Shown here: positions 6,950-45,870 of the stretch, piece after piece
Layout: the number at the start of each line of letters is the position of its first letter
How positions within the stretch are numbered: the first letter of the stretch is position 1
Assembly: GCA_030390025.1 (NCBI GenBank)
Contig: CM059432.1
Coordinates: 54,252,001-54,316,000, forward strand
Reading direction: 5' to 3'
From: Squalus acanthias
Lineage: Eukaryota
DNA: 64,000 nucleotides
Made by a program: the position numbers and the translations under genes
Notes under the pieces: generated by a model
Told to the model about the DNA's origin: nothing
The model's database searches: none
The model's input: only the letters and a program-made list of their open reading frames with translations

Positions 6950-6988
6950 TTACAAGCTTTCGAAGCAGTTCGCTCCTTCGTCAGGTAA
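6950..6988 (-). ncRNA. Minimal type I hammerhead ribozyme motif
   Basis: Reverse complement reads UUAC-CUGACGA-A-GGAGC(gaacu)GCUUC-GAAA-GC-UU-GUAA. Confidence 0.75.
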
Positions 6989-7239
6989 GTTAGCAATGAG
7001 AGAATCTCCCAGAATTCACAATTTAAACCCAGACAAAATCTATTCACATTATTCCCTACAACAAAGAGCACAGCCAAGACAATGAGATGTGTCCCAGGGG
7101 GTCCAACGTGTCAAACCACCTGCTGGCTGCATATCCTGTCAATTTGTGTTCTTGTGTTAGTCTTTTTTTGTGTGAATAATGTGAATAGATTTTGTCTGGG
7201 TTTAAATTGTGAATTCTGGGAGATTCTCTCATTGCTAAC

Positions 7240-7278
7240 TTACCTGACGAAGGAGCGAACTGCTTCGAAAGCTTGTAA
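7240..7278 (+). ncRNA. Minimal type I hammerhead ribozyme motif
   Basis: TTAC CTGACGA A GGAGC gaact GCTTC GAAA GCTT GTAA: intact core, stem I, stem II and palindromic stem III. Confidence 0.75.
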
Positions 7279-7439
7279 AATTAAATAAATCTGTTGGACT
7301 ATAACCTGGTGTTGTGCGACTTCTCATTCTTAGGATATCTATAAGGCTTTCTTGTAATTATTTTTGTAATTTTATGCTAGCACTTAGGCATTCAGGAGCC
7401 AGTTATCATTCATCTTTTTCTGCCACTAGCCTCTTTTAC

Positions 7440-10005
7440 TGGTGAGTTTGCCGGCAGAGATCCGCTGAGTTGACTTGTTTGGGGGAAGAGGAGGACCAGC
7501 AGGGAATGCCAGGCTGCTCAGCTGCCGAAGAGGTGCTGTGTGCCACCTTACTGGCACCTGCACCTCTGCATCAGCAGAAAGAGGTGTTAAAGCAGTGCTA
7601 AACCATTTAGAACTGACTTACAAGAGAAGACGAAAGCCTAGAAATTCAGCTACATACCATACACTGGTAAGGCCCATTTCTTGAAAAAAAACGGCGGCCG
7701 CCTCACTTCCACCTGCCTCTGGCATGGGACTCGATGGCCACCATTTTGGAGAGGGCAATAGCACTGCCATTAGCAGCGCTGGCCCTAGAAATGCGAAGCA
7801 GCAGAGCGTGACATCAGTCGTCGACTTCACGCCACGCTCTTGAAATTTGGACCTTTGCGCTGACTTTAACGCTGGGTCCTAAGCTCGCACTGAAAAACGA
7901 GTGTGCAGCAGACTGACAGAGAAGCTGTCAGTGCTACTTAAAGGGATACACACATCTTTCAGGTAAGTTTGTATTTAAGCTTTTGGACTGGATTTTTTAT
8001 ATTTTATTGAAGTGGAGTCACTGTTGTAATGTGGGAAACGCGGCAGCCAATTTGCACACAGCAAGCTTCCACAAACAGCAATGTGAAAATGCCCAGATAA
8101 TCTGTTTTTGTTATGTTGGTTGAGGGATAAATATTGGTCAGGACATCGGGGATAACTCCCCTACTTTTCTTCGAAATAGTGCCATGGGATCATTTACGTC
8201 CACCTGAGAGAACAGACAGGGCCTCAATTTAACATCTCATCTGAAAGACGGCACCTCCGATAATGCAGCACTCCCTCAGCACTGCACTGGAGTGTCAGCC
8301 TAGCTTTATGTGCTCAAGTCTCTGGAGTGGGACTTGAACCCACAACCTTCTGACTCAGAGGTGAGTGTGCTACCAACTGAGCCACAGCTGACACTGTGAG
8401 GAAGAAACAGAAGAGGAGGAAGCAGAAGGAAAGATGCAACCCAGCCAGACCCTTTCTGGCCAGGATATCAGAGATGGAATCATCTGCCTGTGGTACCAGT
8501 GACCACAACCCCAATTCTCGTTTCAACATTAGTCCCACACCTTACCTTCCCTCTGTTACTGACCATCACAGCGTCCTCTTGGCCACAATGCTGAAATAAA
8601 AGCCACGACAAAGCAAACTTTCCAATCCAACTTTATACATATATGCATCCAATATGACATCCATAAATCAACTAATCACCCTTGTGCATTCGCTTAGTGA
8701 TTGGCTTGTGTGTGCCTTTGCCTTTCCTGCTGATGTCACGCAGTGCTACTCCAGTGGCTGCAGCATGACTGGTGGAAGGCTGCTGAATTTCAGTAGGGGA
8801 CACTGCAAATGGCCTTGCAGGATGACCTCGAGAAGCTGGTGGCTGGGAGTGTGAAATCGAGTGGCGGTGTTTCTTCTTCTTCTTCTTTACTCTCCTCTTC
8901 CATTCTTGATCAACCATTGGCTGGGCAGGCTGCATTTCTTGGGTGTCAGAAATGAGGAAGGCACAAGGGTGGAGTTGTGGTGAGGGGAGGGCGGGAAAGC
9001 AAGAGGTGCATGCGTATGGAGGATAACGTATGAGGATACCAGCATCTTGTATCCTTTCAGCCCCGCCGTTGGCCAAGGGCTCAGCCATGCCACTGCCAAG
9101 AATGGTCAGCACCATTTCCTCCAAGGGGATGAGGTGAAGCTAGGAATGGGAGGTGTGCCTTGTGTTTGGTCCAGATTGTTGGTAGGTGAGTGATGGGGGG
9201 GCGGTTGTGCTGAGCAGTGTGCGAGGCTAGTGGTGCAGTTGGTAGGAGACGGCTTTTGTAGGTGCATCACTGACCTCGACCACTGTCTGAGGTCACGAAG
9301 CTTCTTTGGGCACTGGAGCTAGGTCGTGGCATTGAGACTGCTGTCATTGATGGCCTCGGTGATCTGGTCCCACATCGTTCTTTCTGGAGGGCCTCCTGGC
9401 CCTCTGTGGTTTGAGGACCCCTCTTGCAGTGTTGACCCCTGCACAAAGCTGGAGTGCTGCGTGCGAGACCCAGGGTGACGCTTCCCTGGGAGACCCTTCC
9501 CTGGCTTGTTGAGCTATTTCTGTTAGTGCTGAAGGACTTTTACCATTTTTTTAGGTGTGCAAGGCAATTCAGCTTTAAGATCTGGATACTGCCATCTATG
9601 AATAATTTTAATTTTTTTTTTCAGACAGCAGTTGAGCTCCACGGGCTAAAAACTGCCTATTTTTTAAATGATTTTTATTTTTTTCATATTAGAAGGCAGT
9701 TCCCCTTTAAGGGATTGACACTGCTTTCTAAAATGACAGCCTTGCTTTAAGAGAAGGCTGCTCTTGCTCCAGGGACGCTACGGCCATGCTACATTGGGCC
9801 TCCTGTTGTGAGTAGCACCAAAAACCAGCCTTACACAGTGAGTTTAGCGCTGCGCTAATGTTAAACTGCAGGCAGCACCAAAATGCCGGTGCTGCCTGTG
9901 AGATTAATTTAAGAGGCTGTTAACAGTGGCCCGCAGTGGCACTGGCAGCTTTTCGGCGCACTCGAACTTTTAGCCTGAAAATCCATATTATGGTCACAAT
10001 TCTCC
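7440..10005. mobile_element. Internally deleted Harbinger element related to H1 (ends approximate)
   Basis: 7685-7970 resembles 2070-2310. 8395-8830 resembles the H1 transposase end, intergenic region and Myb C-terminus (...KRMHKGD). Myb exon-1 remnant at ~9270-9480 on the minus strand. Confidence 0.7.
8005..8393 (-). mobile_element. tRNA-derived SINE (SacSINE1/DeuSINE-like)
   Basis: Minus strand has A box TGGCTCAGTTGG and B box GGTTCAAGTCC. Body is homologous to 37307-37730. Confidence 0.8.
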
Positions 10006-10039
10006 AGTTGTTATTTCTCTTTAAGCTGCGTCCATTGTT

Positions 10040-10620
10040 GGGATGAAATTTCTTTAGGCTCATTTTCGGGCCTGAGATGGGTGCCACAGACAGAGAACAG
10101 GCCCCAAACAGGTGGTCCAAGTTCGGCTCGTAACTGGGCTTCGGGCCTCATTAACATTATTTGTGTGAACTGCCGGCACCTGTTGCGCCGCCACAGGCCC
10201 AAAGATAAGTCCTGGGAAGGGGGGTGGTGGGGGCGGGTAGTGGAGCTGCAATGTTGGGGGTGGGGTGAGGGGCTCACAAGTACTGTGGAGTCTGGGGCGC
10301 ACTCCTGTTCCTCCTGGCTCCACAGAAACGTATTATTTTATATTTTTAAAAGAAAACTAATCATTTGGTGGCACCCTCTGAAGAATCTGGATTGGAGCAG
10401 ACTCGACTCCTGCAATGTCCAATTTCAGCAAGGGATGAGGCCCTTCATTTACATATGTTTTAGATGGCCGCCAGGAATGCCTAAAAAATGGCCTGACCCA
10501 ATATTGTGTCAGATGTATTTCAGGCGTCCTTTGGGCCCGGGATGTTGGCCCCTGAAATTGACCTTTGTTGTGCCCATTTTACGCCCCTAAAACATGCACA
10601 ACAAGGTTCAATTTGTACCC
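10040..10620. mobile_element. Harbinger-type MITE
   Basis: Termini GGGATGAAATT and AATTTGTACCC. Right half is homologous to 48889-49354 (gttgtgcccattttacgccc). Confidence 0.65.
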
Positions 10621-10914
10621 TGATAGATCACGAATTAACAAATGGCGCTTAACAGTTTGTGAGTTTAGAATTTCTTACCGCAGATGCACAAACTCAGGTA
10701 ATCTATATGAACACAGGCCAATGAACTGGAGTTTCCTTTCTCGTAGCAATCAAGTGTTAGTCTTCATCACTAATGTTAAACACTAAATTAAAATAAGCAA
10801 ATATCCTCTTGCTTTTGTTCTGCTGGTGCTTTTAGGCCAGGAATGTAACCACCACCAGCAGAAGCAATTGGGCGAGAAGTCTGCCCAACCAGACTGTGAC
10901 AAGGTAAAGTTAAT

Positions 10915-11657
10915 GGCCCAGAAATTGATCTCGCTCTGTTCCCGCGGGGGTAAGCCTTCCCCGCGATCTCTCACTCCGCTTGTGCTTTTTCAGATCCAGC
11001 TCGCACGAACTTGATGTTCCAGACATCAGCTGGGCTGTGCTTGCGTATCCCACCGGCGTAGTGAATTCGTGCGAGCTGTGGGATCACGTGACTCAGTTAG
11101 AGCCAATGGCAGCACACCATCTTCCATTCATAAGTTTCACATACGTGCTGTGAAATCTATGAATCTTACACCCCCCCAAAATAACAGCTAAACCTCAATT
11201 AAATTTTTTTAAAAAGCCATCACATTAATAAAATAAGTATAGTTAAATAAATTAACCATTTTAAATAAAAAATTAAATTTTTGAAAAAATTTAAAATCTT
11301 TTAAAAAGTTATAAAAATAAACTTACCTGTCTTTAAAGTCTCTAAAAAAATATACCTGTTAAAAAAAAATCAAAAAAATACTTAATTCACTACTTACCTT
11401 GTTAAAAGTGGGTCTTACTCCTCCTTTTTCCATTTCTAAAGTCTACAGTACTTACCTGTGCGTCCAAAGCATGAAGTGCACAGCGTGCGCGCAGCCTGTA
11501 GCGCGCACGCGATGCACCGAGGAACCGCCCCCTTTTCAAAAGAGCAATTGCCGGTTTTCAGCGCATGCGCAGGGCATGCAGAAAACCGGCAATTGGAGTG
11601 GGAATACGCGAGAGTATGCAGTGCGTACTCTCGCGCACCGGGATGAATTTTTGGCCC
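10915..11657. mobile_element. Harbinger-type MITE with AT-rich core
   Basis: Termini GGCCCAGAAATT and AATTTTTGGCCC. Inverted homologue of 60965-61727. Confidence 0.85.
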
Positions 11658-13069
11658 ATTCATTGTAACCTCTCTGCCTGAGTTGATATTTGAACACACC
11701 GCTGCCGTTCTGGCCTTTTAAGTGCAGCAGAGAGGAGTTTATAAAGAATAGAGTTGAAACTGGGAAAAAAATACAAAAATCAGGAGAAGGTAGTTCTGTT
11801 GCCCCATCCACAATTACTCCATTCCAATCCTTTAATTAGTAAGGAATTAGCACCAGCATCAAAATGTTTTTACCTATTACCCTCAATTTCCACCAGATAA
11901 GAAATATTCAAAAATTGGATGATGTATTGAATGATGAAAGGAACATCTTGGCTCATGTGCTTTGGGGAATCCCCTGATTTGCTCTGAAATTTTTGCTTTC
12001 TTTATATGATGTTTATGTTACTGGGCTCTGAATCAGTATGACAGTGCTGCAAAAAATGTCATTTTGCTGCAATCTCGGAATTAGTTTAAAGTAGTGCACC
12101 ATGCTGTTATAGCACACACAGCATGACTAACAATAAGCTATGATCCTAGCTGTTTGCATGTGAAAACAAATGTTAAAGCTGCTTGTTAAGTCAACACGAT
12201 AATAAATGTCATGGAGCACATCAACATAATAAGCATCATTGTTACATCTGGTTATGGCTGGCTTCTTCATATGTTAAATACTCTTGAGCACATCTACTTG
12301 AAAATAAAACATTTGTAAATTTGATAGATTTAATTAGCTTAAAAAAATCTTTGTGATCTTAGCAGTAAACTTTAAAAATTGGTATATAATTAGCCAACTT
12401 GGACTTATCATTAAGGTTCATGAAGTTGTTTTGTTGTGATTAACTTAGCTGTACATCCTCTGCGTAGGAAAGCATTTTGAAAAGCAAACGATTTCTTATG
12501 TGTATTGCAAGATTACACTCATTATCTAGAGTCTCATCTGGCTTGCGTAGTTAGCTTGAGCAGACTGACTACAGTCGGGTGTTGTTAGCAGTCCTTTTCA
12601 TGATCCTTACAAACACCTTTGTGTGGGTTGTAATTACATATTTTAAGATAATTGTGACTGAAGCTTATGCGTCCTGCTGGGGCAACGGATATAAATCAAC
12701 AGACTCCACTCGGGGACTCTGCTAACTGACCTTTCTGGTATCATGCTGCGTTTTGAATTATCTGTCATGTTTTGTCCAACCTTCCCCCATGAAATTAGCT
12801 TGAGGTAGGCATTCCAGTTCAGGAAGTCACATTGAATAATATTTGCTGGCCAGAGAAAATTTTCTAGCTCTGTGCTGATGAAGGTCTGCAGATAATGGGA
12901 AAATCTCTCGTATCATTAGCAACAATAGTACTGGCAGAGTAAATATGTAAATTTGTTCCACATTTCTCAGCCACTTACCATTAAGATTATGCTGAACAAA
13001 CATTTGACTTAGCAAAGTTCTTATCATATAGCCTAAAGGCTCAATGTCAGGACTTGATTTTTCTTTCTG

Positions 13070-13170
13070 TAATAATGCTTGCATTTATACAGTGCCTTAT
13101 CACTTCAAAATAGCTCAAAGTGCTTCACACAATGAATTAACTTTTGAAGTGCAGTGCCTGTTGTTATGTA
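13070..13170 (-). mobile_element. SINE 3' fragment
   Basis: ttgcatttatacagtgcctt...tgaagtgcagtgcctgttgttatgta matches the reverse complement of the SINE tail at 37615-37720. Confidence 0.5.
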
Positions 13171-13914
13171 TGAAAATCTATCTATTATGCTCATTTTAGG
13201 AAACAGGTGGGACCAATGTTAGTCTTGGCTGTTGAAACCGAGATAAGTACAACAACAATATTGGTCGCCCAAGTCCACAGATGCTGAACTCAGCCTGTGG
13301 CCAAGGTGGAGATGTAAATTATAGATAGGATTGGCAGCTCACTCACTAGCAGTGGGATAAATTAATGCTGCTACAGATCTTAAAGGACACAGTAGCTTAA
13401 AGGGGCATTGGTGTTGTTCTGGCAAAAAGGGCAAAGAGACTTGTAGCTATTTTGCTGACAAGTCTTCAAGTATTCATGAGTGACAGGGTGCCTTGCTTTT
13501 CCAATAGGAAATTCACCCCACAGATACATTAGCCTAGATTTTCCAGTATAATGTCAGTTTAGCCTAGGTTGGCTAGAAACAAGTACCAAACTCACCTTGA
13601 GTGCAGTGTGTTGATTGGACACAATTTTCTGTGGTCAGCTGATTATCATTATTATTTACAGCTTCAGTTGCAGCTTTGCAGATGTTTAGGGAGGTGGCCT
13701 AGTAGTGGAGGCCAGAAAATTCCAATTCAGTTGAAATTTAAAAGTATGGGGACACTTAAAGGGAAGTGGCAGAATACATGACCAAAACTTATCTTTGAAA
13801 AGGCATAAAAGGCATTTGGACCCCTTGACAGCCTTTGCCAAGGCTAAAGTGTGAGAGGAGGAAGAAATGGCAGGCAAAAATAAAGTGAAAGGAATTCCAA
13901 TAGGAAGACATGAA

Positions 13915-14065
13915 ACAAAGTCTTAGGTGAGCGATGGACAGCTCAGCACTCCTCTGTGTGATGGCTGCTGAGGTGGGAGTGGTACTGCATAAGGTGGTTG
14001 TGTTTGTCACTCCAGTGCAACCTCCTCATAGGGCAACATTGCAACGTGCCTGGAAGGAGGTGTTG
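13915..14065 (+). pseudogene. Decayed Harbinger Myb exon-1 remnant
   Basis: ...PPHRATLQRAWKEV resembles the Myb/SANT helix region of the other copies. Confidence 0.4.
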
Positions 14066-14129
14066 ATCTCCAAAGGGAGTGATTTCTCTTCGATTTCATT
14101 AAACCCACCTCTACACATAAAACACTGAC

Positions 14130-16178
14130 AATAAGGATTGGCGAAAGCAGCTGAAATACATGAGGAGGAAAAAAAACTGTTTGAAAGAAAAGACACTTAA
14201 ATTCTGCTTGAGTGTACAGCTATCAAAAATGGCTTCAGCAAATCCACTGTGATTCACAGTGCAGAACTGGCTAAAGAGGAATGAAGAGGCAATGACTAGA
14301 TTGAATTTACTGCACTCAAGCGGAAAAGGGCTCTATTCCTAAATTACAATTGGGAGGGGTTAAGAAATTCTGTAAACTCTGACTAATTTGTGGTGTGGTC
14401 ATGATTATGACAGTGTAAAAGTAACACTTACCAATCTCTTTAAACCCAAGAAAAATGTTCCGGCCTGGAAATTGCGGTCAGAGGTTTGCCGCCCGCTTAC
14501 ACCTCCAAACCGCAAGAAAACTCCGTACTTACCTGCTGCCTCCGGAGCTTTGGACTCTTGCGGTCCTGGGTTTGCAGGCGTATGCCTGCGTAAAGGCCCA
14601 CGCATCCCAAGGGCGCAGGCAGTTCGCAAATGTCCCTGGGATCACGTGGGCCAGGCCAACCAATGACAAAGGGGGATTCCTATGATGCTTATGGGGATTC
14701 CATCTCCGTATGGAATCCCCATAAGCTGAATAGAAATCACCTAATAAATAAAATTTCACAACACCAAAATAAAAATAAATAATCACAGGTTCAAAATTAA
14801 TTAAAATACCCTTTAATTAAACATTTAAAATAAAAATTAAATTTTTTGAAAAATAAATTTAAACATTTTTAAATGGGACAAAAATAACCTAAACTAATTT
14901 TAAATGTAAGTGAATGTTTAAATCATTTTAAAAATGTTATTTTAACATTTATTTTAACCCTTACACTGGTAAAAGAAGGCCTTATGCCCGTTTTTACCAG
15001 GCATAAGTGTTTGGTGGGTATTCACTGGGCAGCAGTTGAGCAAATAGCCCAACTCTGCGCCAGCGAAAGCGAATTTACAGCGGATGGGTACGATCTGTCA
15101 AGGAGAAACTTGACAGATCACAAGTTCCGGGTTTTCGCGGATTCTCATCGCATGCGGAAACTCAGAATTTCCAGGGCACTTACGATGGTGTATGTGCGTC
15201 ATAAAATCCGGGCTGTTATAAACGGAGCAAATCTCTTTCTTAAGGCTCAACAAAATGTAAAATCGACAGTGGATTGTTGTGTACAAGACTAAGGCAGTTA
15301 GCCTTAGGTGAAGTTTTAAATTCAAGAATATAGATGGTGAGCTCCAAACACAGGTTATCAAAGCTTCTGCTTCAAAGTTCCGTCAACTTGGATTGGAGAA
15401 AGACCGTGATTTGAATGACATGTTAAAGTTTGAGCCAGCATTTGAGCTATCAAAAAACAGGATGGAAAATGTGGAAAATAAACCAGTCAAGAAGTTAAAT
15501 ATTAAGCAGTGGAATCCAAAACAAACACCACAAAAGCTCAAGAATATTATATGTGTGACGTGCGTATTCAAATGAATGTGAGTGTCCAGCAAAAAGAAAA
15601 CCATGCTGATCTCATGGGAATCAGAGCCATTTTTTACGCTCCTGTTGTTTGCTAAGTAAAAATGTAATAAAGAATCCAATAGCTAAGCTGAAACCACAAA
15701 TCTAGGGCCGTGAACGAAAGAGAAAAACTCAACATATCTGAAACATATCATGGGACATAGCCAATAGTAGCTCAAGAGAAGAAATAGGGAAACAAGGAGA
15801 AAAGATGAGCATTGTGTCAAGTAAAGAATTGATAATGGTGCTACAGACTGAAGGTGTACCAGTGAAAGTAGTGGTTATTTCTGGGTGTCCATGATACATT
15901 ATTAAGGAGTTTGGCTTCAAGGAAATTAAGTGGAATGTTTGCTCAAGACTGAGACTACAGAAAATCTTAGCAAAACTGTTTTCATATGGCTCTGACACAT
16001 CTGCCAGAGCTTGATACATTATAGCAAGGATAAATGCAGAAAAGAGAGTCACAACTGGTGAAGGGAAGTGTTAGATCTCTTCTAAGCCCAAGGACAGCAC
16101 GAGAGTTACAGTTGCTGAGTATAAGTGATAGAATTTAAAAATGAAAGAAAGCAAGAAATTTCCAAATTCTTCAAAGAC
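14130..16178 (+). mobile_element. Highly decayed Gypsy (Mag-like) LTR retrotransposon gag-protease remnant, probably continuing at ~21155-21270
   Basis: DYDSVKVTLTNLFKPKKNV before the MITE, then F.KAQQ..RLRQLA and TQVIKASASKFRQLGLEK after it. Degenerate double zinc knuckle (C..C...ECPAKRKPC*SHGNQSHFLRSC) at ~15550-15650. IDNGA at ~15828-15842 resembles the protease D(T/S)GA motif. Confidence 0.55.
14462..15214. mobile_element. Harbinger-type MITE with AT-rich core, inserted in Gypsy gag
   Basis: Termini GGCCTGGAAATT and AAAATCCGGGCT. Architecture like 10915-11657 (GGGATCACGTG block, AT core). TSD not resolved. Confidence 0.7.
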
Positions 16179-16708
16179 ACAGGCCACGAATTTGCCGGCG
16201 CTCAGAGGGCGGGTTCGGAGGCAGGTCAGGTGTTAAATCCAAAATGATTGAACCCGCCCCTAACCTGCCTCCACGCCACTTTCCAAAGTGTCGGGTCGGC
16301 GCCTTCATAGCCGACCCGACACCAAGCGGCGGGAGAGATATTTAAGGTTGTTAACAGCTTGTTAACTCCTTGTTAAATGCTATTTTGCCAGGGTAATTCC
16401 TTTTTCACACATTTTCAACGTGTTTCAAGCCGTTCGGCAACCACGCCAGCTGAGTGTGTCGGGTTTTCCAATGAGCTGAACAGTTCGCAGCTGCAATTGC
16501 TGCATATAAACTTACCTATCACTTCAGTTCAATTTCAACTGTCTGATGTGGCTGAATTCATAATTTTGAGGAGACCTTTGAGCTGTATTGAGGTTGTGAG
16601 TGTGTGCTGTGAACTCTATATGCACTATCACCTCCTCGGAATAAGGTCTCTCCCCATTGACTTACTCCTGATAGCATCTCATCCTAAACTGACAGATATA
16701 CCAGCAGA

Positions 16709-17955
16709 ATGGGAACCATTTATACCCTCTCATCCTGGTCCTCAGATTGAGAAGAGGATCATCCGTGGCAGCAGCAGAACCAGGCACAGCAGCAGCACCA
16801 ACAACAGGAGCTCCAACCTTCTCCTCAGCCTCCTGATGCTGCACAGGGCAAAGGCCATCAGGGCTTGGCTGCCCTGCGCCGCAGGAGAAACCCCCAACAC
16901 AGGGTTTACAGGCAGAGGATGAGCTTCCTCAACATGAGTGAGCAGCACTGCCAAAGGAAGCTGAGACTATCGCGAGAGGTAGTCGCTGACATCTGCACAA
17001 TGCTGCACCAATACCTGCAGCCTAGAGGAGCGGGTGGACACTCCTTACCAGTGACTGTCAAAGTCACCACCTGCACTCAACTTCTTTGCGTCTGGGTCCT
17101 TCCAGGGATCAGCAGCAGACATTAGCGGCATCTCCCAGTCGGCCGCCCACAGATGCATCACGCAGGTCACCGATGCCCTCTTTGCAAAGTCCGCCAATTA
17201 CATCCACTTTTCAACTGATGAAGCAAGTGTTACCACGCGGGCACTAGGCTTTGTCAATCTGCCTGGCTTTCCATGGATGCAGGGCATCATTGACTGCACC
17301 CATGTGGCCATCAGGGCACCCCATTGCAACCCAGCAGTATTTGTGAACTGCAAGGGCTTCCACTCCCTTAACGCGCAGCTGGTGTGTAACCACAGGAAGA
17401 GCATCATGCATGTGTGCGCAAAGTACCCTGGCAGCTGCCATGACTCCTACATCCTGCACCAGTCCACTGCGCCTCAGCTCTCCTCTCCTCTAAACGACCT
17501 TTTAGGATGGCTCCTTGGAGACAAGGGCTATCCCCTGAAGATGTGGCTTATGACGCCGATGAGGAGGCCATCAAACAGGTCTGAGGAGCGCTACAGTCAG
17601 AGCCACATCTCCACCAGAAGTGTCATTGAGCAGACAATAGGGTTGCTCAAAATGCACTTCAGATGCCTGGACAGATCAGGGTGGAGCACTGCAGTACTCA
17701 CCAGCCAGGGTCTCGAGAATCATCGTGATCTGCTGTGCCCTGCACAACATCGCACTACAACGTGGATTAGCGCTGCCTGAGGAACACGTTGCACAGCGCA
17801 CAGCCTCTTCAGAGGAGGAGGAGGAGGAGGAAGAGCTGAATGAGGTTGCTGGTGAGGAACACCTGGCGGAGGCGGCTGACCCAGTGCGACCAGCATGCGA
17901 GCACATTGCTGCCCGTCAGGCAAGGGATGGCCTAATCCATGCCAGTATCAACTAA
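16709..17955 (+). pseudogene. Harbinger DDE transposase (few frameshifts)
   Basis: Motifs [48 protein letters not shown] and an acidic tail. Confidence 0.93.
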
Positions 17956-18239
17956 CTTTAGGCATCACAGACATGTGGCTGCCACATGCACGTGAGGGTT
18001 CGGATGACCCAACTTCCACACCATAGAGTATCCCTTCAATGAACTGTGCATTCCTAGCCCTTTCACCACCATTGCTTCAGATGAAAGGTGCCCTCACCCC
18101 TCGCTGTGCCACCTCCACCTGTGAGCACACACAGGGCAATGCTTTGAAACATTCACATGACATAACTTTAATACAATAAAATAAAAGAACACAAACTTTA
18201 CACTGATTTATATGAAAGCACCCAAGTGACTACCCTTGT

Positions 18240-20174: not shown

Positions 20175-20404
20175 TCAGGAGCATCACAATGTCAATGAAA
20201 GCCAAAGGGTACATGGCCCCTTAAATGCAACTGCTTCAAAGACGTCATCAAAGGTGAGCTGCAGACAAGCACCCACTGATTGGGCCGGGTAGCGTGCACA
20301 GCGGGATTAATAAGCCCAATCTACTGAAAATCATTATCTCATTGCGGATCCAGCTGGCAGCGGGTCCAGAACCCGCCAGACAGCGAACCCGATGCCAACC
20401 CCAT

Positions 20405-33147: not shown

Positions 33148-33352
33148 ATTGTATAGGTTGTGGGAGCCCATAAAACCCTCCCGCCATGTAGAGCTAACCA
33201 CCCGATAAAAAGATGGTTACGGCCACGGAAAAACTATTCACGTTGTGGCCTATCAGACTTAATCAGCTTGTGAATCGAAGGGATGAGTGTGAAGATGTGA
33301 CAACAATAATAGGGAAATAGTTGGAGGGCAGAAATCTAAGGGTAAAGGAAGT

Positions 33353-34245: not shown

Positions 34246-34339
34246 AGACTAGTTTCTTGGACGTGGATGATGTGGTGAGTTCTATTCCACTGGAGCCTAT
34301 GTTGATGCCATTCTTATTTACTGTAAGCACAATGATCAT

Positions 34340-34657
34340 GAGTTAGGAATTGAGAGAACAATATTGAACTTTGCTGATAATGCTGAATTGTGGAGTATGC
34401 AATTTTGAGAAAAACTGCAGAAGGACATAGGTAAAGGGTAGATAAGTGATAGGTACAGTTCAATGAAGAAAACATATAAAGTAATGCATTTTGGAAGTGA
34501 GAATAAGGAATCAAAAAGACCTTAATCCAGAGGATTTTAAATGCAGTAGAGGAGCAGAGAGACCTTGGTATACAGATACACCGGTCATTAAAGATGACAG
34601 TGCAAGTAGATAAGGAAAGTCATAAAAAAGGCAAATTAAACCCTTGGCTTTCTATTT
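34340..34657 (+). mobile_element. Old CR1 RT fragment
   Basis: Degenerate FAD, VMHFG and EQRDLG motifs. Confidence 0.5.
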
Positions 34658-34660
34658 ATA

Positions 34661-34800
34661 ATGCGGAGATGCCGGTGTTGGACTGGGGTGGACAAAATTG
34701 AGAGGTCGCACAACACCAGGTTATAGTCCAACAGTTTTATTTGAAATCACAAGCTTTCGGAGCTATCGATTGCCCCTTCCTCAGGTGAAGTAAATAGATA
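34661..34800 (-). mobile_element. Short Penelope-type insert, same family as 6863 (right limit uncertain)
   Basis: ggagatgccggtgttggactggggtggacaaaa...gttatagtccaacag block shared with 6863-6990. Confidence 0.75.
34747..34788 (-). ncRNA. Minimal type I hammerhead ribozyme motif
   Basis: Reverse complement reads UCAC-CUGAGGA-A-GGGGC(aaucgaua)GCUCC-GAAA-GCUU-GUGA. Confidence 0.75.
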
Positions 34801-35664
34801 CAGAATCGCCAAAGCATATATAGATAGAGAACAAAGCATGTGTAAGGTACATCAGTGAAACCATACCCCAGGTTAAGTCAGCACCATCAAACGAAGCAAT
34901 GAAAAAAGGGAGGAAATACGAAGATAAAGAAAAAAATTATTTCTTTATTGCAATCCAGTCCTTCTTTATATTCAGCCTCCTCCTCATTCTACCATCTTGC
35001 CCCATATAGCCAATCAGTTGGACTTCCCATCCTCTCCTTATCATGGGACAGTGACTATGTCCTTGGCCTGAATAATATCAGAACACTACTGACAAATACT
35101 TGGTTACTCTAAAGTGGCAGTTACCAATAGTTGTGAAAGGTGGATCAAACAGTGGGGTAGATTTCACGAATTAGCGCTCCTAGCACAGAGCTTTGCATGA
35201 TAGGAGTACATATTGGGAATTTCAGCATGGATATCAATGCACCCAGCATGATTTTCCATCTATTAAAATTAATGAATACAACTTACACACTAAAGGTAGC
35301 TCATTATTTGCTGCTGTTGGAGAAATCTAAGCACAGGGGCTTAGGTGATTTCTTTTCATTTTGCTTAGCATTATTATTCTTTCAACCTTTTTTTTGTGAA
35401 GGATGTTAGAACAGTTTCCATTTCTGGCATCTAGTATCAGCATAAGACATTCTCCATTCAGGTATAACCTCTGATCTGCTCTAATAATGTGCTTAAGCCC
35501 AACCTTACAAGAGCAGCCCCTCCTGCATTTTATCCATGTCCCACATCAGGCACCTTCTGGCCTCACTGATTGCCAACATATGTGATAATAATTAAGGGTA
35601 GTTTTGTACTCAGGGCTCAGGCTCACTCAGAAACAGATTGATATTGCCCAGTATGTTCCAGCGA

Positions 35665-35970
35665 TATCTCAGCTGGTTAAAGTGATGAATAACTAAGCCA
35701 TACAGAGCAGGTAGGTCTGTATTGAATTAGCTGATCTCAGTTGGAACAGCAGCAGAGGTATTACAATTGGCCTTAGTGCCCTTAAATTAAGGAGGGTAAA
35801 ATTGGCTGAGAGTTCACACTCCTAGTCACTCTCCTCACTGGAAGTACATGTATGCAAACATTTGGGTAGGTTGCCCCCTCTAAAGGACTGGTCAGCTAAC
35901 ATTAACTGTCTAGGCCCAAACATGAAGAATGGTAGTTAGGTGAGGCACCTAGCACTTGTGGAACATACCC
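35665..35970 (+). mobile_element. Old SINE-like repeat (tentative)
   Basis: ctcagctggtt...gaattagctgatctcag motif resembles ancient vertebrate SINE bodies. Recognised by recall only. Confidence 0.3.
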
Positions 35971-36104
35971 CAAAAATAAAGGTAGGTGGGAGAATGGATG
36001 GGGTCAAGAAGAGGGAAAAAAACACCTATTCTGCCCAAACCTATTCCACAAAGGACTCTTGCACAACACAAAAGGAGGCCATTGGAATCAATGGGTGGGA
36101 TATT

Positions 36105-36312
36105 ACTCACTGCCTGAAAGGGTGGTAGAGGCAGGAACCCTCACAACATTCAAGAAGCATTTAGATGAGCACTTGAAATGCCATAGCATACAAGGCTACG
36201 GACCAAGTGCTGGAAAATGGGATTAGAATAGACAGGGCTTGATGGCCGGTGCGGACACGATGGGCCTCTTTCTGTGCTGTATAACTCTATGACTCTATGA
36301 CTATGACTCTAT
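36105..36312 (+). mobile_element. CR1 3' end
   Basis: Near-identical to 22415-22615, with (ACTCTATG)n tail. Confidence 0.88.
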
Positions 36313-37194
36313 CCAGTGACAGCAGCCCAAGGGCTGCTTACCGCTGCATTTAAGCTATCCCAACCTTCGATGTGCCAGTAATTTTCATGTGTACCATCTA
36401 CCATGGCAGCAAGGAGGGAGAGGAGCAAGACAACCCTTTTTGAGGATGCTATTTAGAGACCTTTGTCCATGAGGTCCTGGCAAGTGGAATGGTCCTCCTT
36501 GGAGCTTAGGGACAGCCTCAAATTCTCACAAATATGCACAGACCACATGAATGCAGTATCACACATGCATAGAATGTGACAGGAAATAAGAACATTATTT
36601 TTAGGACTGGGGTAGGTTGCAAAGGTAAGTACATTGGTGCTTTGCCTACTTTTTGGTATATGACCTTAGGATGAATATCAATAACAGTGCACTCTCACTT
36701 TGGTGCTCCTTCACACAAACAAGTAGCATAGCACTCCAGCAGTTATTTACCTGGTTGGCAAATACACACACATACCTATGTTGCTGGGCACGTTTTCTTG
36801 GTGGCAGAGAAATATGCTTCGAATGCCACAGATAGATCCATCACCATGCTACCAGTATTAGCTACCTGCAAGCTGCATTTTGATGGATTTACATAATCTG
36901 GTTGTTAGGTTGAACATATGGGTGCCACTCTCTGCTATTGCAAATTCCAACATATGTTCCTTAGATGAGGACTAGACGGATACCTCCCAACTTGAAACTC
37001 TCTATGAGATGAGAGGCCTACAAAAGGCAACAGAGGGAATCTGTTGGCGGTGGGGCAGGGGTGGGGGGGGAGGGGTGGTGGCAGGGGCGGTAAGTTGGAA
37101 ACCTCTGCCAAAATTAATGCTATTACCATTCTTTGCGTTTTATTCTTTCACCCCATACTGAGTTTCTCATGTCATTTCCTTAAGGGTAGCTAGG

Positions 37195-37730
37195 GATATT
37201 GAGAAAATGCGGGTAAATGGAGTTAAGATACTGATCAGCCATGATCCAACTGAATGGCAGAACAGGCTCAATGAGCTGAATGGCTTACTTCTGTTCCTAT
37301 GCTGATGTCAGTTGTGGTTCTGAGTCAGAAGATTGTGGGTTCAAGTCTCACTCCAAAGACTTGAACACATAATCTAGGCTGACACTTCAGTGCAGTACTT
37401 AGGGGGTGTCTTTCAGAGAAGACATTAAACCCAAGGCTCATCTGCCCTCTCAGGTGGATGTAAAAGATCCAACGGCAATATTCGAAGAAGAGCAGGGGTG
37501 TTCTCCCTGGTGTCCTGGTCAATATCTATCCTTCAATCAACATCACAAACTGATTATCTGGTCAATATCTCATTGCTGTTTGTGGGACCTTGTCATGCAA
37601 ATTGACTGCCAAATTTCCTACATTACAACAGTGACTACCACTTCAAAAAGTACTTAATTGGCTATGAAGTGTTATGGGATGTCCTGAGGTTGTGAAAGGT
37701 GCTATATAAATGCAAGTTCTTTCTTTCTTT
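37195..37730 (+). mobile_element. CR1 3' UTR fragment (37195-37301) followed by a DeuSINE-like SINE (37307-37730)
   Basis: gatcagccatgat...cctatg tail, then B box GGTTCAAGTC and a body homologous to 8005-8393. Confidence 0.78.
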
Positions 37731-39898
37731 ATACATTGTATACATTGCATTGCAGCAACATAACACATAATACCTTGGCATTTAAGTTGTGTTTGATGGG
37801 GTACTTTTCTGTAGAATTATAAATTATATCTCCTTTTGATCCTCTAATTAGTCATATAGAGAAGCCTACCGATGGTTCATTGAGGTTGCATAAAGTAATA
37901 GTACAGAATGGAATGGTATCCATTGTACTTGATGTAAAGCTGAGGGAAATTATGGGAATATTTTTCTGTTCCACTTTATTGGGAGTGAATTAAGTTAATT
38001 TAGCCTAATTTTTAAAAATCTTAATTTAATCCGTTGTTCTGTATTTGCTTAATACATTGATTAAATAAAGAAAACTTGACGATATCGATTTATGTAAACT
38101 TTTCCTGAACAGAATATAGCTTTTACCGTATCATGCAAAATAAGAGCAAAACATTTCCAAACTATTTTCATTCTTACCGTATCTAAAGGATTTTAACACC
38201 TAAAACTAGAACAAACTCCTAGAAAAAATAGCAAGGAAAGGATTCCTAGAGAAGGTAGTTCATTTGGAGTTAACCAACGCCGTTAAAAGGAATTGGACTT
38301 CATATTCAGGAGAACCTTGGTGCTGATCAGTGCTCCAAACCACCTTCAATTGAGGACAGGGGGTTTGAGGAGACATGAGGCAGTCAGGCTGGGGGCCTAT
38401 CATTCTTTTAAACTTTACTTTCACTGCTGCAGGAAAAGGGATGCCAATGCTATCTCTCTCAATCCCACCTTTAAAAATCCATCAAAAGAGTGGCTTTCTT
38501 TTATGTTGGGTTCTGTGGAATCTTGTTAGAATTGTAAATGTGTTGTTTCATCTTCTTGCTGCTACAGCTGAATTAGCAGTCTATACATGCTCAGCCACAT
38601 CAATTTGAATTGCACAATAGGTCTGATCCAATTCATCCTGTATATTATGCTAATAGAAATTCTATTTGCTGTCACTCAGTGACGGAGTCCAGGGCTCAGA
38701 AAACCATTTGAAAGTTTAAAAACTGATATGTTTTAAATGTTCTATCACAGTTGAACTGGAATGAGTTACGGGCTGTAACACAGAATGTTTTGTGAACATG
38801 CACTGCATGTCATTAGCAGAACTGTTTGGTTATGTTACAGATTTGGAACACCAACTGTTATTCTATATATATATATATATGTGCATGTATATAGTGTCAC
38901 TGCTTCCAGTCTCCAAATCCTGCCAATTTCTTTTATAAGTATTCTTATGACACTGAGTGTAAAAAGACCCAATTCAGTCAAGCTGTTTTGCCACCCAGAT
39001 TGGCTTAAGAGCATCAAATTGCAAAATCAAATTCAGTGCTGTAAAGCAGGGCTATTTATGGCAAATCCTGCAGTTGTGATAAGAATAGTTTCCTAATGTT
39101 TTTATATTGTTTTCTTAGAACTTGAGCTATCAGCTGATTGAATGTAGCAGGATTGTATGAGAGACGCTGGGGAGAATTTTAACAGCAAAGAGTGAGTGGG
39201 TTTGGGAGTGGGTGGGTGGTTAAATGCGCTGAAATTGACAGCGCGTCGGGAAGCCGGCTACAACCCGCCGTCTTTCGCATTTCACTCAAGCACGTTTGGC
39301 TGCGTGCGAGAAACCCCCCTCGGAAGAGGCATGTTACCAATTTAAAGATATTATGAAGTAGTTAAGAGGTAATTAACACCTTTTTTAACAGGGGTTTTCA
39401 ACTTTCACTGTGGGTCCACGGGTTTCCCGAGCTTCATGGACCTCACCAGTGAAAGCAAGGTGAGAGCACAGCAGCAACTGAGGGCGCTGAACAAACGACA
39501 GGTATAAGTACTGAGACCTCACACCTGTTTCCTTGCCGAAGTGAAAGCTTACAGCACTTGTTCTGAGAGTTTGCTTTCAGTACTTTGCAGGTTATTTCTA
39601 CAACTGTGGAGATGATTTCTACTACTTTGGAGGTGACTTTCACTACATTGGAGGTCACTCTCGCTATTTGAAGATGTCTTTCACTACATTGGAAATCACT
39701 CATACCACTTTGGAGGTTTGTGCATCTGATCTCCACTTTACATGTCATATATCAGGTCAGCAAAGGTGCCACTTATGTTATTTCACCTTGGACCTCAGAT
39801 GAGAACCAAGATGAGCACCAGTAACAACACCAGCAACACCAGCAGGAGCACCAGCAGCCTTCTCCACACCGGCCTGCCGCTGCAAAGGAGAGAGGGGA

Positions 39899-40786
39899 TA
39901 AGCTCAGAGTGGTCTGAAACAGAGTGCTTCTAAACAGAGTGTTAAAGTTGGGAATTTGGAGAGAGTGGGAATTCAGAGCAGAGGGAATATTCCAAAATTC
40001 TCAACGAATATACATTCCATTGAGAAATAAAGGGCTAGAAATTCATTATAGCCCAGGAATGGGTGGTAAAATTAGAAAAGCTGGCCACATGTTCCAGTCT
40101 TTCTCGCTGCCTCCGCTCCCTCCACCATAGATCCTGGAGAGCCAGGCAGACTGCCCATACAGCCCCCATTATTGTAAGCCAAGTGTAGCACTTTTGATAT
40201 TTTTAAAGAATAAATGTAACTACTTTTTAGTTACCACAACACTCCTGATACAAAAGAACCTTTAAATTCCTGAATTAAACTGTTGTACAATATCAAACTG
40301 ACAAGAAAGCGCTGAAACTCCACCAACCTGACAGCTGAGACTCATTACTCATGATCCCTTTAAATTACATCCCTGGAGTCGGCTTCCGCCTGCTTGATGC
40401 CTCCTCTCCCAGTTGCTGTCTGGCCGAGGTGCTAAGGTAGGTGGCGAAAATCAATTTTGCAGATCGGGCACCACGCTCACTGACATCACGATCTGCCTGG
40501 CGTTGAAGTCCCCTTTTAAGACTGAGATTAGGAGGAATTTCTTCACGCAGAGGGTTGTGAATCTTTGGAATTCTCTACCTGAAAGGGCTGTGAATGCTGA
40601 GTCATTGAGTATATACAAAGCCGAGATAGATAGATTTTTGGACTCTAGGGGAATCAATGGATATGGGGTCGGGCGGGAAAGTGGAGTTTGAGGTCAAAAA
40701 TCAGCTATGATCTTATTGAATGGCAGAGCAGGTTTGAATGGCCATATGACCTACTCCTGCTCCTACTTCTTATGTTTTTATGTAGG
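39899..40786 (+). mobile_element. Composite insert: CR1-like pieces with a probable nested MITE (~40032-40513)
   Basis: CR1 3' end at 40514-40783 (RRNFFTQRVVNLWNSLP and tail). GGGCTAGAAATT terminus at 40032. Confidence 0.6.
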
Positions 40787-41273
40787 TACAGCTCACAGGA
40801 GGCAAAAGCCGCAACACAGGGTATATAGGCAGAGGATCAGCTTCCTTGACATGTCCAAAGACCAGTGCCTCAGGAGGCTCAGGGTATCGGGTCAGGTCAT
40901 GGGGGATATTTGCACCCTGTTGGACCAAGACCTGCTGCCAACTGGACCTAATGGCCATGCTTTACCAGTGGCTGTCAAAGTGACCACCGCCCTCAACATC
41001 TTCACATCAGGCTCCTTCTAGTGATTTCCAGGAGATATTTGAAGGAATTTGCAGTCGGTCGCCCACAAATGCATTACACAGTTGACCGTGCCTTGTTTGC
41101 CAGGGCAGACAGTTATGTACACTTTGCCCCCGATGAAGCCAGTCAGACTGAGCAGGTGCTCAGGTTTTTGGCTCTAGCTGGCTTCTCACAGGTGCAGGCG
41201 TCATTGACTACACACATGTGGCAATCAAGGCACCCCCAGATCACCCAGGAGTGTTTGTGAACCATAAGGTTCA

Positions 41274-42957
41274 CAAAGCTGGGTGAGAGTGTAAGTTGTG
41301 AGGAGGATGCAAAGAGGCTTCAAGGGGATATAAACAAGCTAAGTGAGTGGGCAAGAACATGGCAAATGGAATATAATGTGGAGAAATGTGAAGTTATCCA
41401 CTTTGGTAGGAAAAATAGAAAAGCAGAGTATTTTTTAAATGGTGAGAGATTGGGAAATGTTGGTGTTCAGAGGGACCTGGGTGTCCTTTTACACGAATCA
41501 CTGAAAGTTAACATGCAGGTACAGCAAGCAATTAGGAAAGCAAATGATATGTTGGCCTTTATTACAAGAGGATTTTAGTACAAGAGTAAAGGGGGGCAAA
41601 ATTGGGTCATGCCCCCTTTGGGGCGCTAACTTCGCAAGTAGCGCCCTGAAAAAGTTAGCGCCCCCACTCCTGGATGATCTGGGGGTGCCTTGATTGCCAC
41701 ATGTGTGTAGTCAATGCCCCGCACCCGAAATTCACTGGTAGCGCACCAAGAGGGAGGCGGGGCGCTACTGGAATCGTCCCGCCTCCCTCTTGGGGCGCTG
41801 CGAGTGAATATTGCGGCACTAAGTGCAGCAGCGCCACGCGCTGCGGCACATCACGCCGTGGTACTGCAGGCCTTCCTCCCCTTATTAAAGGGGAGGGTCC
41901 TAGCGCAGCACGACCCGGGGCCCAGCTGGGCCACCAGGGATCGGAGTGCCGGCAAAAGAGCCCAGCGCTCAAGAGAAGTGCCGGGCTCACGGAAGGCAGC
42001 CGGCACCCCGTTGGGGGGCTGCACAGGAGGCCAGGGACAGCAACGGGGGCAAGTGCTGGCAGGTGGCCAGCAACAAAAATGGCCACCCGGCACCTCCCCT
42101 TTAATTTGCGCCGCCCCGGCCACAGATAGGCCCCCTTCACACTGTCAGACATAGCGTCCGGCGGTAAATCATGGGGCGCTACCGAAGATCGCGAGCGGGG
42201 TGCTACACAAGGTGATGATGTCATCGCCAGAGGCTCAGCGCCGCGGGGCGCTAACGGTTACTACCGCCGCTAACCTCCAGCTGATTCCCTTAATATCCAA
42301 AAATCTATCGATCTCTGTCTTGATGGGAGGCGCAAATCAACCGAATTTTTCCCCCAAGATGTCTTACTGCGATTATATAGGGCCCTGTTGAGACCACACC
42401 TGGAGTATTGTGTACAGTTCTGGTCTCCTTACCTAAGGAAGGATATACTTGCCATAAATGGGAGTGCAACGAAGGTTCACTCGACTGATTCCTGGAATGG
42501 GGGGATTGTCCTATGAGGAGAGATTGAGTAGACTAGGCCTATATTCTCTAGATTTAGAAGAATGAGAGGTGATCTCATTGAAACATACAAAATTCTTACA
42601 GGGCTTGACAGGGTAGATGCAGGGAGGATGTTTCCCCTGGCTGGGGAGTTTAGAACCAGGGGTCACAGTCTCAGAATAAGGGGTCGGCCATTTAGAACTG
42701 AGATGAGGAGAAATTTCTTCACTCAGAGGGTGGTGAATCTTTGGAATTCTCTACCCCAGAGGGCTGTGGAGGCTCAGTCATTGAATATATTCAAGACAGA
42801 GATCGATAGATTTTTGGATATTAAGGGAATCAAGGGATATGTGGATAGTGCAGGAAAGTGGAGCTGAGGTAGAAGATCAGCCATGATCTTATTGAATGGT
42901 GGAGCAGGCTCGAATGGCCAAATGGCCTACTCCTCCTCCTATTTCTTATGTTCTTAT
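41274..42957 (+). mobile_element. 5'-truncated CR1 LINE
   Basis: KCEVIHFG through RRNFFTQRVV, with tail. Probable TSD GTTCA at 41269-41273 and 42958-42962. Confidence 0.9.
41592..42355. mobile_element. CpG-rich Harbinger MITE nested in CR1
   Basis: AAG TSD at 41589-41591 and 42356-42358. Removing it restores the CR1 sequence aagagtaaagatgtctta. Homologous to 24141-24846. Confidence 0.92.
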
Positions 42958-45499
42958 GTTCATCAATGTGAAGCTCATCTGCAACCACAAAAAGATCATT
43001 ATGCAAGTGTGTGCAAGATTCCCAGGGAGCTACCATGATGCATTTGTCCTGCACCACTCCACCCTCCCTGATCACTTCGCACCTCCAAACAGACTTACCG
43101 TCTAGCTGCTTGGAGACAAGGGCTGTCCACTTAAGACATGGTTGATGACACCCCTGAGGAGCCCAATCAATAAGGCCTAAGAGCGCTACAATCAAAGCCA
43201 TATGACGATGAGATGTGTCATTAAGCAAACAATCGGGATGCTGAAGATGCGCTTCAGGCTCCTCGACAGATCTGGAGGCGAACTTCAATATGCGGCAGCC
43301 AGGCTCTGAAGAATGATTGTGGCTTGCTGTGTTCTGCAGAACAGTGCAGCAGCAAGGATTGGAGCTGTAGGAGGAGCAAGGCACAGAGCACATTGCCTCT
43401 TCAGAGGAGAAAGATGACAAGGAGGAGGAGGAGGAAGAGGAATGTCAGGTGTCCATTGCACCAGCAGTGGTGCACATTGCTGCCCGGGATGCTTGGGATG
43501 GACTCATCATGGTAAGATTTAGTTAGGTTGCACCACTGTAGCCATCTGGCAGCCACATGCTGAACCCACTTGCCCCCTCCCCCAGCACAAAGCAGTCCCG
43601 CAATCAGCAAGGCATCCCTTTCACAGACACCCATTGCTCAGATTTAAGTCTTGTCTTACCAAGCATTAGAACTGAGAAGGCCAGTTGCCAGGTTGCAGGC
43701 AAAAATGGGCAAGACTGGAAAGTGGTGCAAAGCAATAATTTTATATGTGGCTCAAAACTTATACATTAACTTATCAGAGCAACATGTCTATCACACCCAT
43801 GTGCACAACCTTGTGCAACTACTAATCTTTCATTTTCCTTTTCCTACAGCTCCTATGCCGTGTAACTCCTGTGGCTCCAGCAGAGGTAGAGGCAGGCTGC
43901 TCACATCCCTGCCCTGACTGCTGAGATGCTCTTGGCTGACGTTCTCTGGGTTTTGGAGCCCATGAGGGCCCCGCCAAACCCTGCTCCACCTCCACCTGTG
44001 CAGGAGCAGGCTCGACAATCGGGACATGAGGCAGCAGGTGGAGTACTGACTGAGGTGGGGCAATGGGTGAGAAACATAGAAATATAGAAAAATAGGAGCA
44101 GGAGTAGGCCATTCGGCCCATCGAGCCTGCTCCGCCATTCAATATGATCATGGCTGATCCTCTATCTCGATACCATATTCCCGCTCTCTTCCCATACCCC
44201 TTGATGCCTTTTGTGTCTAGAAATCTATCTATCTCCTTCTTAAATATATTCAGTGACTTGGCCTCCACAGCCTTCTGTGGTAGAGAATTCCACAGGTTCA
44301 CCACCCTCTAAGTGAAGAAATTTCTCCTCATCTCAGTCCTAAATGTCCTACCCCGTATCCTGAGACTGTGACCCCTCGTTCTAGACCCCCCAGCCAGGGG
44401 AAACATCTTCCCTGCATCCAGTCTGTCTAGCCCTGTCAGAATTTTGTACGTTTCAATGAGATCCCCTCTCATTCTTCTAAACTCTAGTGAATACAGGCCT
44501 AGTCGACCCAATCTCTCCTCATACGACAGTCCTGCCATCCCAGGAATCAGTCTGGTGAATCTTCGCTGCACTCCCTCTATGGCAAGTATATCCTTTCTTA
44601 GGTAAGGAGACCAAAACTGCACACAGTACTCCAGGTGTGGTCTCACCAAGGCCTTGTATAACTGTAGTAAGACATCCTTGCTTCTGTACTCAAATCCTCT
44701 TGCAATGAAGTCCAACATACCATTTGCCTTCCTAACTGCTTGCTGCACCTGCATGTTTGCTTTCAGTGACTGATGTACAAGGACACCCAGGTCCCTTTGT
44801 ACATCACCATTTTCCAATCTATCACCATTTAAATGATACTCTGCCTTTCTGTTTTTCCTACCGAAGTGGATAACTTCACATTTATCACGTTGTACTGCAT
44901 CTGCCATGTATTTGCCCACTCACTCAACTTGTCTAAATTGCCTTAAAGCCTCTTTGCATCCTCCTCACAACTCACAATCCCACCTAGTTTTGTGTCATCA
45001 GCAAACTTGGAAATATTACATTTGGTTCCCTCATCCAAATCATTGATATATATTGTGACTAGCTGGGGCCCAAGCACTGATCCCTGTGGTACCCCACTAG
45101 TCACCGCCTGCCACCCCAAAAATGACCCATTTGTTCCTACTCTCTGTTTCCTGTCTGTTAACCAATTTTTAATCCATGCCAGTATATTACCCCCAATCCC
45201 ATGTGCTTTAATTTTGCACACTAACCTCATATGTGGGACTTTATCAAAGGCCTTCTGAAAATCCAAATGCACCACATCCACTGGTTCTCCCTTATCTATT
45301 CTACCAGTTACATCCTCAAAAAACTCCAGTAGGTTTGTCAAACATGATTTCCCTTTCATAAATCCATGTTGACTTTGTGTAATCCCGTTGATATTTTCTA
45401 AGTGTCCTGTTATCACATCCTTTATAATAGACTCTAGCATTTTCCCTGCTACTGATATTAGGCTGACCGGTCCGTAGTTCTGTGTTTTCTCTCTCTCTC

Positions 45500-45870
45500 T
45501 GCTGTGATTTCCAGCAAAAAAAGTTTAAAAAAAATTTGTTTTCCATACAGACTCCAGCATCTGCCATATCTGACCCCTTGTGACCCCACCTCATTGTCTT
45601 TGTTGTATTTTGCTATCGTCTTTGATGTAATGTCTTCCTGACTGACCTGGTTGGACACCATCCACACCTTTGATTGCCGTGATTGTCTCTCTGCCGAGGT
45701 GTGATAAAGGGCAGTTAGAAAGATTAACTGTAGTCGTCTGGCATTGTTCTCTGACTACATATGCTGTGCCCATATGTATTTCTTCACTTCACCTGATGAA
45801 GGAGCAGCGCTCCAAAAGCTTGTGATTTCAAATAAAGCTGTTGGACTATAACCTGGTGTTGTGTGACTTC
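45500..45870 (+). mobile_element. Short Penelope-type insert within CR1
   Basis: Interrupts the CR1 at ttttctctctc|tcctttttta. Ends with the aaataaa.ctgttggactataacctggtgttgtg block shared with 7280-7325. Confidence 0.75.
45789..45825 (+). ncRNA. Hammerhead motif with a G12->A core mutation (probably inactive)
   Basis: TCAC CTGATGA A GGAGC agc GCTCC AAAA GCTT GTGA. Confidence 0.65.

Follow-up and report, generated by a model that had tools for sequence, protein, structure and literature searches.

In a 64,000-nucleotide stretch of the Squalus acanthias genome (contig CM059432.1, positions 54,252,001 to 54,316,000; hereafter the window, in whose numbering all positions are given), four copies of a hammerhead-like RNA motif, which make up the GAAAGCUU family, lie at 6950, 7240, 34747 and 45789. 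Our results suggest, with a probability of roughly 0.88, that these motifs are minimal type I hammerhead sequences residing in the terminal repeats of three 5′-truncated insertions, which likely represent three subfamilies of a single Penelope-like element (PLE) lineage, and that they would cleave themselves only as dimers or with the help of the element's protein. This type of feature was already described in 2014 and does not define a new system.

Read on the ribozyme strand, all four copies have the same order of parts: stem I, CUGANGA, an A, a five-pair stem II, GAAA, GCUU and the second strand of stem I. The motifs are located where the initial annotation had placed them, and each keeps CUGANGA, with position N7 being C at 6950 and 7240, G at 34747 and U at 45789. 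Its description of a paired stem II closed by a loop of changing length (5, 5, 8 and 3 nt across the four copies) was equally accurate, and so was the loss of G12 at 45789, where we found an A. The full core (CUGANGA ... GAAA-N-N-U-H in type I topology) is thus present at 6950, 7240 and 34747, with one of the four copies, 45789, departing from it through G12A. What had been overlooked is an additional A, conserved among the copies, that sits between A9 and G10.1. All four copies substitute a palindromic 15.2/16.2 (AAGCUU) for helix III, and for this palindrome a self-duplex of −4.3 kcal/mol is computed. A strict descriptor (4-bp stem I, stem II of at least 5 bp starting with G, palindromic 15.2/16.2), which by design leaves aside 45789 for its missing G12 and another motif at 56497 for its shorter stem I, detected three sites in the window and none in 200 block-shuffled windows, and on that count we rejected a chance motif. 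No hammerhead was among the 12 weak matches of Rfam covariance models at E ≤ 5.

The architecture of the insertions is the second line of evidence (Table 1). The motifs at 6950 and 7240 had been attributed to one insertion, and this holds: a 13-bp target-site duplication encloses both, and their arms (7174-7328 and 7054-6900) agree at every one of 155 nt, a minority letter of stem II among them. Over 171 nt, the 7161-7328 arm shows six differences, five in its first 13 nt and one past the junction. The arms stand head to head, with the minus arm extending through a 93-nt centre, and the whole insertion measures about 465 bp, contains no open reading frame (ORF) and folds at −320 kcal/mol. At its turn there is a 5-nt microhomology of 7161-7165 with 7063-7067. 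The cDNA likely folded back on this microhomology and was then self-copied; alternatively, priming may have occurred from both nicks, of which PAc, a PLE of Anolis carolinensis, is capable in vitro (PMC11167929; for this and all other published work we draw on portions of the sources). A transcript through the insertion would form a long hairpin masking the ribozyme. The combination of 5′ truncation, inverted copy and short target duplication is seen in one of the three insertions and not in the other two. The 45789 insertion sits inside a long interspersed nuclear element (LINE), presumably CR1-like. This LINE is one of two copies, 95-98% identical, in opposite orientation and about 9-10 kb apart (44080-45995 and 54614-56141), of which one holds the insertion.

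Table 1. Coordinates of the features discussed (window numbering; pLTR, pseudo-long terminal repeat)
Feature	Position	Strand	Remarks
Minimal type I hammerhead	6950-6988	-	Stem I UUAC/GUAA; loop II 5 nt; predicted cleavage between 6954 and 6953
Minimal hammerhead, mirror-image counterpart of 6950-6988	7240-7278	+	Stem I UUAC/GUAA; loop II 5 nt
Minimal hammerhead, intact core	34747-34788	-	Stem I UCAC/GUGA; loop II 8 nt
Minimal hammerhead, G12A at CpG	45789-45825	+	Stem I UCAC/GUGA; loop II 3 nt
Target-site duplication (13 bp), left copy	6850-6862	+	Only exact repeat of at least 7 nt between 6820-6880 and 7310-7370
Target-site duplication (13 bp), right copy	7326-7338	+	
Longer fold-back arm, 5′-truncated pLTR with long tail	6861-7166	-	5′ limit approximate; junction class 6860/6861
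Shorter inverted arm with short tail	7161-7328	+	Junction class at 6902 mirrors 7326
5′-truncated pLTR copy with long tail	34657-34837	-	5′ end reaches at least 34837
5′-truncated pLTR copy, about 375 bp, with short tail, inside a LINE	45496-45869	+	Empty twin at 54610-54970
Separate GAAACGUU family, 113-bp insert (56429-56541) with 14-bp duplication	56415-56555	-	Hammerhead at about 56497-56534; inside a transposon with an empty twin near 59196
PLE reverse transcriptase/GIY-YIG fragment	57698-58846	-	350-codon open frame; short 5′ inversion (58775-58846); no terminal repeat

The sequence downstream of the motifs provides the third line of evidence. It had been described as a shared segment of about 45-90 bp; the sharing is evident, but the segment has two discrete lengths, ending about 52 and about 93 nt past the predicted cleavage site. 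Both lengths occur in the window, the long one at 6950 and 34747 and the short one at 7240 and 45789, and both recur in contigs of public sequencing runs. Contigs from 4 of 20 such runs (X5, X8, X13 and X16) were placed on 6780-7160 (381 bases); variants were listed at 3% or more, and all counts given here are among the contigs and variants listed in the parts of the tables considered. In these contigs, unrelated flanks join the element at 6860/6861 and at 6902, 41 nt apart, and agreement among flanks beyond the junctions is 0.38-0.45. X5 has 28+106 (134) contigs at 6860/6861 and 54 at 6902, X8 has 20 and 17, respectively, and X13 has 27 at 6861. By analogy with published elements, the shared downstream part would be the optional tail of Penelope-like elements, reported as 30-40 bp long with a two-start pattern (PMC11167929, PMC8557442) and tied to two internal starts of reverse transcription (PMC11167929). 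The stretch 6911-6937 within the tail is free of listed variants. An apparent tail hairpin received no support from folding z-scores, and contigs from viruses, metagenomes and prokaryote genomes contained no instance of the tail pattern. Past the long tail (6861), the consensus of the loose ends gives the same terminal four letters in three of the four runs, a weak signal with agreement of about 0.4. Read on the ribozyme strand, these letters would, weakly, put a start codon right at the junction of the long tail.

Upstream of the motifs, the copies had been reported to differ, and a constant ribozyme-plus-tail cassette carrying variable cargo had been proposed. The difference is real for 6950 and 34747, which show no upstream similarity (matched by 999 of 1000 shuffles), but the other two of the three pairs are homologous: 34747 and 45789 have about 40-50 nt in common and 6950 and 45789 a 35-nt block (0 of 1000 shuffles in each case). 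It is just 5′ of stem I that the 6950 type starts to be identical to the others. In the run contigs, the 6950-type upstream sequence reaches a very high summed depth all the way to 7160, compared with 10-27 in the flank (a sum over contigs, not a copy number); one X16 contig (record 13) spans 6908-7160 in one piece, and loose ends match to about 7166. Moreover, a contig of a second organism, organism C, joins 45789-like upstream DNA to a ribozyme of the 45789 type. Being high-copy, attached to a ribozyme of the same type in a second organism and in part homologous between copies, the upstream DNA reads as subfamily-specific terminal-repeat sequence of 5′-truncated retroelement copies. A mobile cassette that acquires and moves unrelated cargo would account for the unrelated upstream parts of 6950 and 34747, and PLE capture of host DNA does have a precedent in a rotifer (PMC3846280). 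Yet the depth of the upstream sequence, its recurrence next to the same ribozyme type in organism C and the homology in two of the three pairs make this explanation very improbable, and we rejected the notion of variable cargo. A 42-residue translation of the region upstream of 6950 had no homologue in a peptide search, which is weak evidence. Another repeat family has just the 50-nt part 7065-7115 of the 6950-type upstream sequence, with different flanks that are consistent in three runs.

Is the hammerhead fold itself maintained? With 6950 and 7240 counted as one insertion, there are three independent copies, over which all 33 cells pair. A change on both sides occurs in one of the 11 pairs (U-A to C-G in stem I) and one-sided changes occur in two. 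Compensatory variation of stem I had been claimed, and it does exist, UUAC/GUAA being found twice and UCAC/GUGA twice; but it amounts to a single event, and since 165 of 500 shuffles reach the same level of covariation, the window by itself is not significant. The run contigs add information on one subfamily. None of the 16 core or invariant positions has a listed variant in the four runs, as opposed to 7 of the 23 other ribozyme positions (p=0.016, with two RNA-only rows set aside), and the variation falls mostly on N7, stem I 1.3, stem II 11.2 and loop II. The same comparison of the core with the upstream flank (0/16 versus 6/79) gives no significant contrast (p=0.32). In stem II, 6950/7240 have a G-U pair that is the minority form in all four runs, the G-C form holding depth shares of 94%, 87%, 99.8% and 100%. 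For a variant at 6988/6990, no matching partner change was found, though the partner may fall below the 3% listing limit.

Organism C extends this picture. Its contig of the 45789 type (X16 record 14) has the C-G pair in stem I on both sides, a 3-nt loop and an intact GAAA with no listed change at G12, whereas the loop type of 34747 is found in another contig (X16 record 15). Since the 45789 and 34747 types both recur there, the three ribozyme variants are real subfamilies. G12A at 45789, in turn, is likely the decay of one copy after insertion, because it lies in a CpG and the same type shows no listed G12 change in organism C. The proposal that the fold has been under selection in the subfamilies thus draws support from complete pairing, the C-G stem I of the second organism and the sparing of the core relative to other ribozyme positions, but not from covariation or the comparison with the flank. 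These two null results, together with the tail stretch that is just as devoid of listed variants, are what one would expect if the hammerhead look were vestigial or accidental, with the fold free of selection and only the tail being of consequence. We regard such an explanation as extremely improbable, given the empty shuffled windows, the onset of cross-copy identity just 5′ of stem I and the preference of variation for N7 and loop II over the core.

Three features make it likely that the GAAAGCUU family belongs to the Penelope-like elements: the type of its ribozyme, a tail of two classes and the architecture of its insertions. Several observations weigh against our interpretation. No PLE coding sequence adjoins any GAAAGCUU copy in the window, according to a peptide search and to tblastn and hidden Markov model searches with 120 of 651 PLE-like proteins, which leaves architecture as the basis for connecting the copies with an autonomous element. 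In the portion of the search table considered (which excludes a part near 38500-40500), PLE coding sequence appears only at about 57700-58850. For the 34747 and 45789 insertions, candidate target duplications are limited to short matches at chance level, and the 41-nt tail spacing is at or slightly above the published range. As to cleavage, monomers and tails fold no better than shuffles (monomer z from −1.2 to +0.4), and minimum-energy cofolded dimers differ from the full active dimer. The activity of published PLE hammerheads is weak (PMC4209133), and 8 of 9 Xenopus dimers tested showed no cleavage (10.64898/2026.07.22.740005). In PAc, insertion in vitro could proceed without cleavage, which itself depended on the element's protein (PMC11167929).

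The lack of an attached ORF in the window also fits a family that is non-autonomous, resembling short interspersed nuclear elements or retrozymes, with a PLE tail and hammerhead borrowed onto bodies of its own and with no autonomous element having exactly such an end remaining. The 45789 insertion runs about 290 nt upstream of its motif without a recognisable reading frame, and retrozymes have been reported as non-autonomous pLTR derivatives (10.64898/2026.07.22.740005). On the other hand, tandem units are missing, the 5′ ends vary in the way truncation predicts, and the possible start codon in the loose-end consensus, weak as it is, also speaks for an element with coding capacity. We therefore consider a non-autonomous family unlikely. 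A tandem retrozyme was rejected, there being no head-to-tail array at the motif sites within the window.

If the motifs do belong to truncated copies of a Penelope-like element, the following scenario can be inferred. The source element would carry the ribozyme in its pLTR just upstream of the tail, in both terminal repeats. Its GIY-YIG nuclease would nick AT-rich DNA, and reverse transcription would begin internally, either about 52 or about 93 nt downstream of the cleavage site, so that each copy would start with tail and ribozyme and end at a random upstream point. As the region in which recognition and the start take place, the tail would have stayed constant, and the upstream part may differ because subfamilies diverged. 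Selection would act on the fold in active source elements, with inserted copies free to decay, as in the case of G12A at a CpG. Most genomic copies would then be dead 3′ stubs that retain the ribozyme only because of its position next to the start sites. The palindrome, finally, could let two ribozyme copies build helix III jointly.

The run contigs also gave a hint of RNA editing. Two of the four runs look RNA-like and two DNA-like, an assignment that was guessed by software and does not come from the run records. Within 6977-7057 there are eight T-to-C rows, which correspond to A-to-G on the ribozyme strand; two of them lie inside the ribozyme. They occur in both RNA-like runs, at 1-25%, and in neither of the DNA-like ones. 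All eight have the 5′ neighbour typical of ADAR, U or A, compared with 7 of 19 (p=0.003). On the other strand, none of 20 equally favourable sites in 6960-7067 shows such a change (p=3e-4), one A-to-G row at 7114 being enriched in one RNA-like run; a C-to-T row rests on a single contig. Thus, the host might edit element RNA on the ribozyme strand only, at A2.2 of stem I and at the bulged A before stem II. Were this so, adenosine-to-inosine editing would damp self-cleavage, and reverse transcription of edited RNA would feed A-to-G differences into subfamilies (stem I A1.3 to G, stem II A to G), which would explain the high within-genome variability of PLE hammerheads. We view this possibility, taken together with both consequences, as quite doubtful: a DNA run shows no excess of this type of change (2 places versus 7 of the opposite type), and the comparison is between contigs only, with RNA-like and DNA-like runs coming from different individuals. 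Nor would it be altogether novel, as heavy editing of Penelope RNA in a lizard and editing of repeats in the elephant shark have been reported (PMC5625713). Still, the strand bias is the sole part of our results that a specialist might not expect.

Several other features are found in the window. The hammerhead at 56497 had been considered distinct from the GAAAGCUU family, and we agree: there is no BLAST similarity between the two, and its tail is different. The transposon holding this GAAACGUU insert is, as we assume from translated frames, Harbinger-like. The reverse transcriptase/GIY-YIG fragment at 57698-58846 has its best matches in whale shark, zebra shark, rays and bamboo shark, being 60-67% identical to shark and ray proteins, and no link between it and the GAAAGCUU copies was found. 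An inverted repeat of about 610 bp (4969-5576 and 5758-6366; 98-99% identity, 181-nt centre) is LINE-like. A near-perfect 64-nt GC-rich hairpin (41738-41801) lies in a repeated GC-rich segment and has a sub-threshold match to a microRNA model, and a GC-rich tandem array of 40-45-nt units occupies 837-1172.

The value of these results lies mostly in annotation: they record, for a shark-like genome, a very abundant end of a probable PLE that escapes the Rfam models. Beyond the retrozyme preprint discussed below, the literature listings searched contained no shark-specific description of such hammerheads, although repeat libraries (Repbase, Dfam) may already hold the family. In addition, the window offers genomic examples of the two-start tail pattern and of a fold-back insertion, and its three natural ribozyme variants with a natural G12A copy form a ready comparison set for dimeric or protein-assisted cleavage.

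Among the closest known systems are the minimal hammerhead ribozymes in the pLTRs of metazoan PLEs (PMC4209133), which likewise are of type I with a 4-bp helix I, an extra nucleotide between A9 and G10.1, a G10.1-C11.1 pair, palindromic 15.2/16.2 and no loop 3. Their consensus, CUGANGAH G...C GAAAN-palindrome-NUH with a U-rich 5′ side and an AU-rich 3′ side, is matched here. They too form many variable families per genome, rich in compensatory changes and mostly solo, with opposite-strand pairs 100-700 bp apart. Fig. S3 of the same work includes GAAAGCUU entries from a turtle (Chrysemys) and Philodina as well as a lamprey UCAC/GUGA entry. In contrast, the portions of the alignment and Table S1 that we considered contain no cartilaginous fish, stem II here has 5 bp, and the GAAAGCUU copies in the window adjoin no PLE coding sequence. 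Non-LTR retrozymes (10.64898/2026.07.22.740005) share the non-coding character, the type I hammerhead and the relation to pLTRs, and have been reported in one chondrichthyan; but they are head-to-tail tandem units, whereas the copies studied here are solo or inverted and have variable 5′ ends. Inverted pLTR insertions of endonuclease-containing (EN+) PLEs (PMC3846280, PMC8557442) have the same head-to-head inverted truncated copy, one-ended tail and short target duplication, with microhomology joins where no duplication is seen; by contrast, our insertion measures only about 465 bp and contains no ORF, and its duplication has 13 bp, compared with 8-10 bp in the rotifer examples. Finally, PAc, a Poseidon-type PLE (PMC11167929), also has two internal 3′ junction classes that define the tail, a hammerhead upstream of that tail, AT-rich targets starting with ATT or similar and the ability to use both target strands. 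Its ORF begins inside stem II and its starts lie within the ORF, whereas in the GAAAGCUU family the putative start codon, a weak hint, would be at the end of the long tail.

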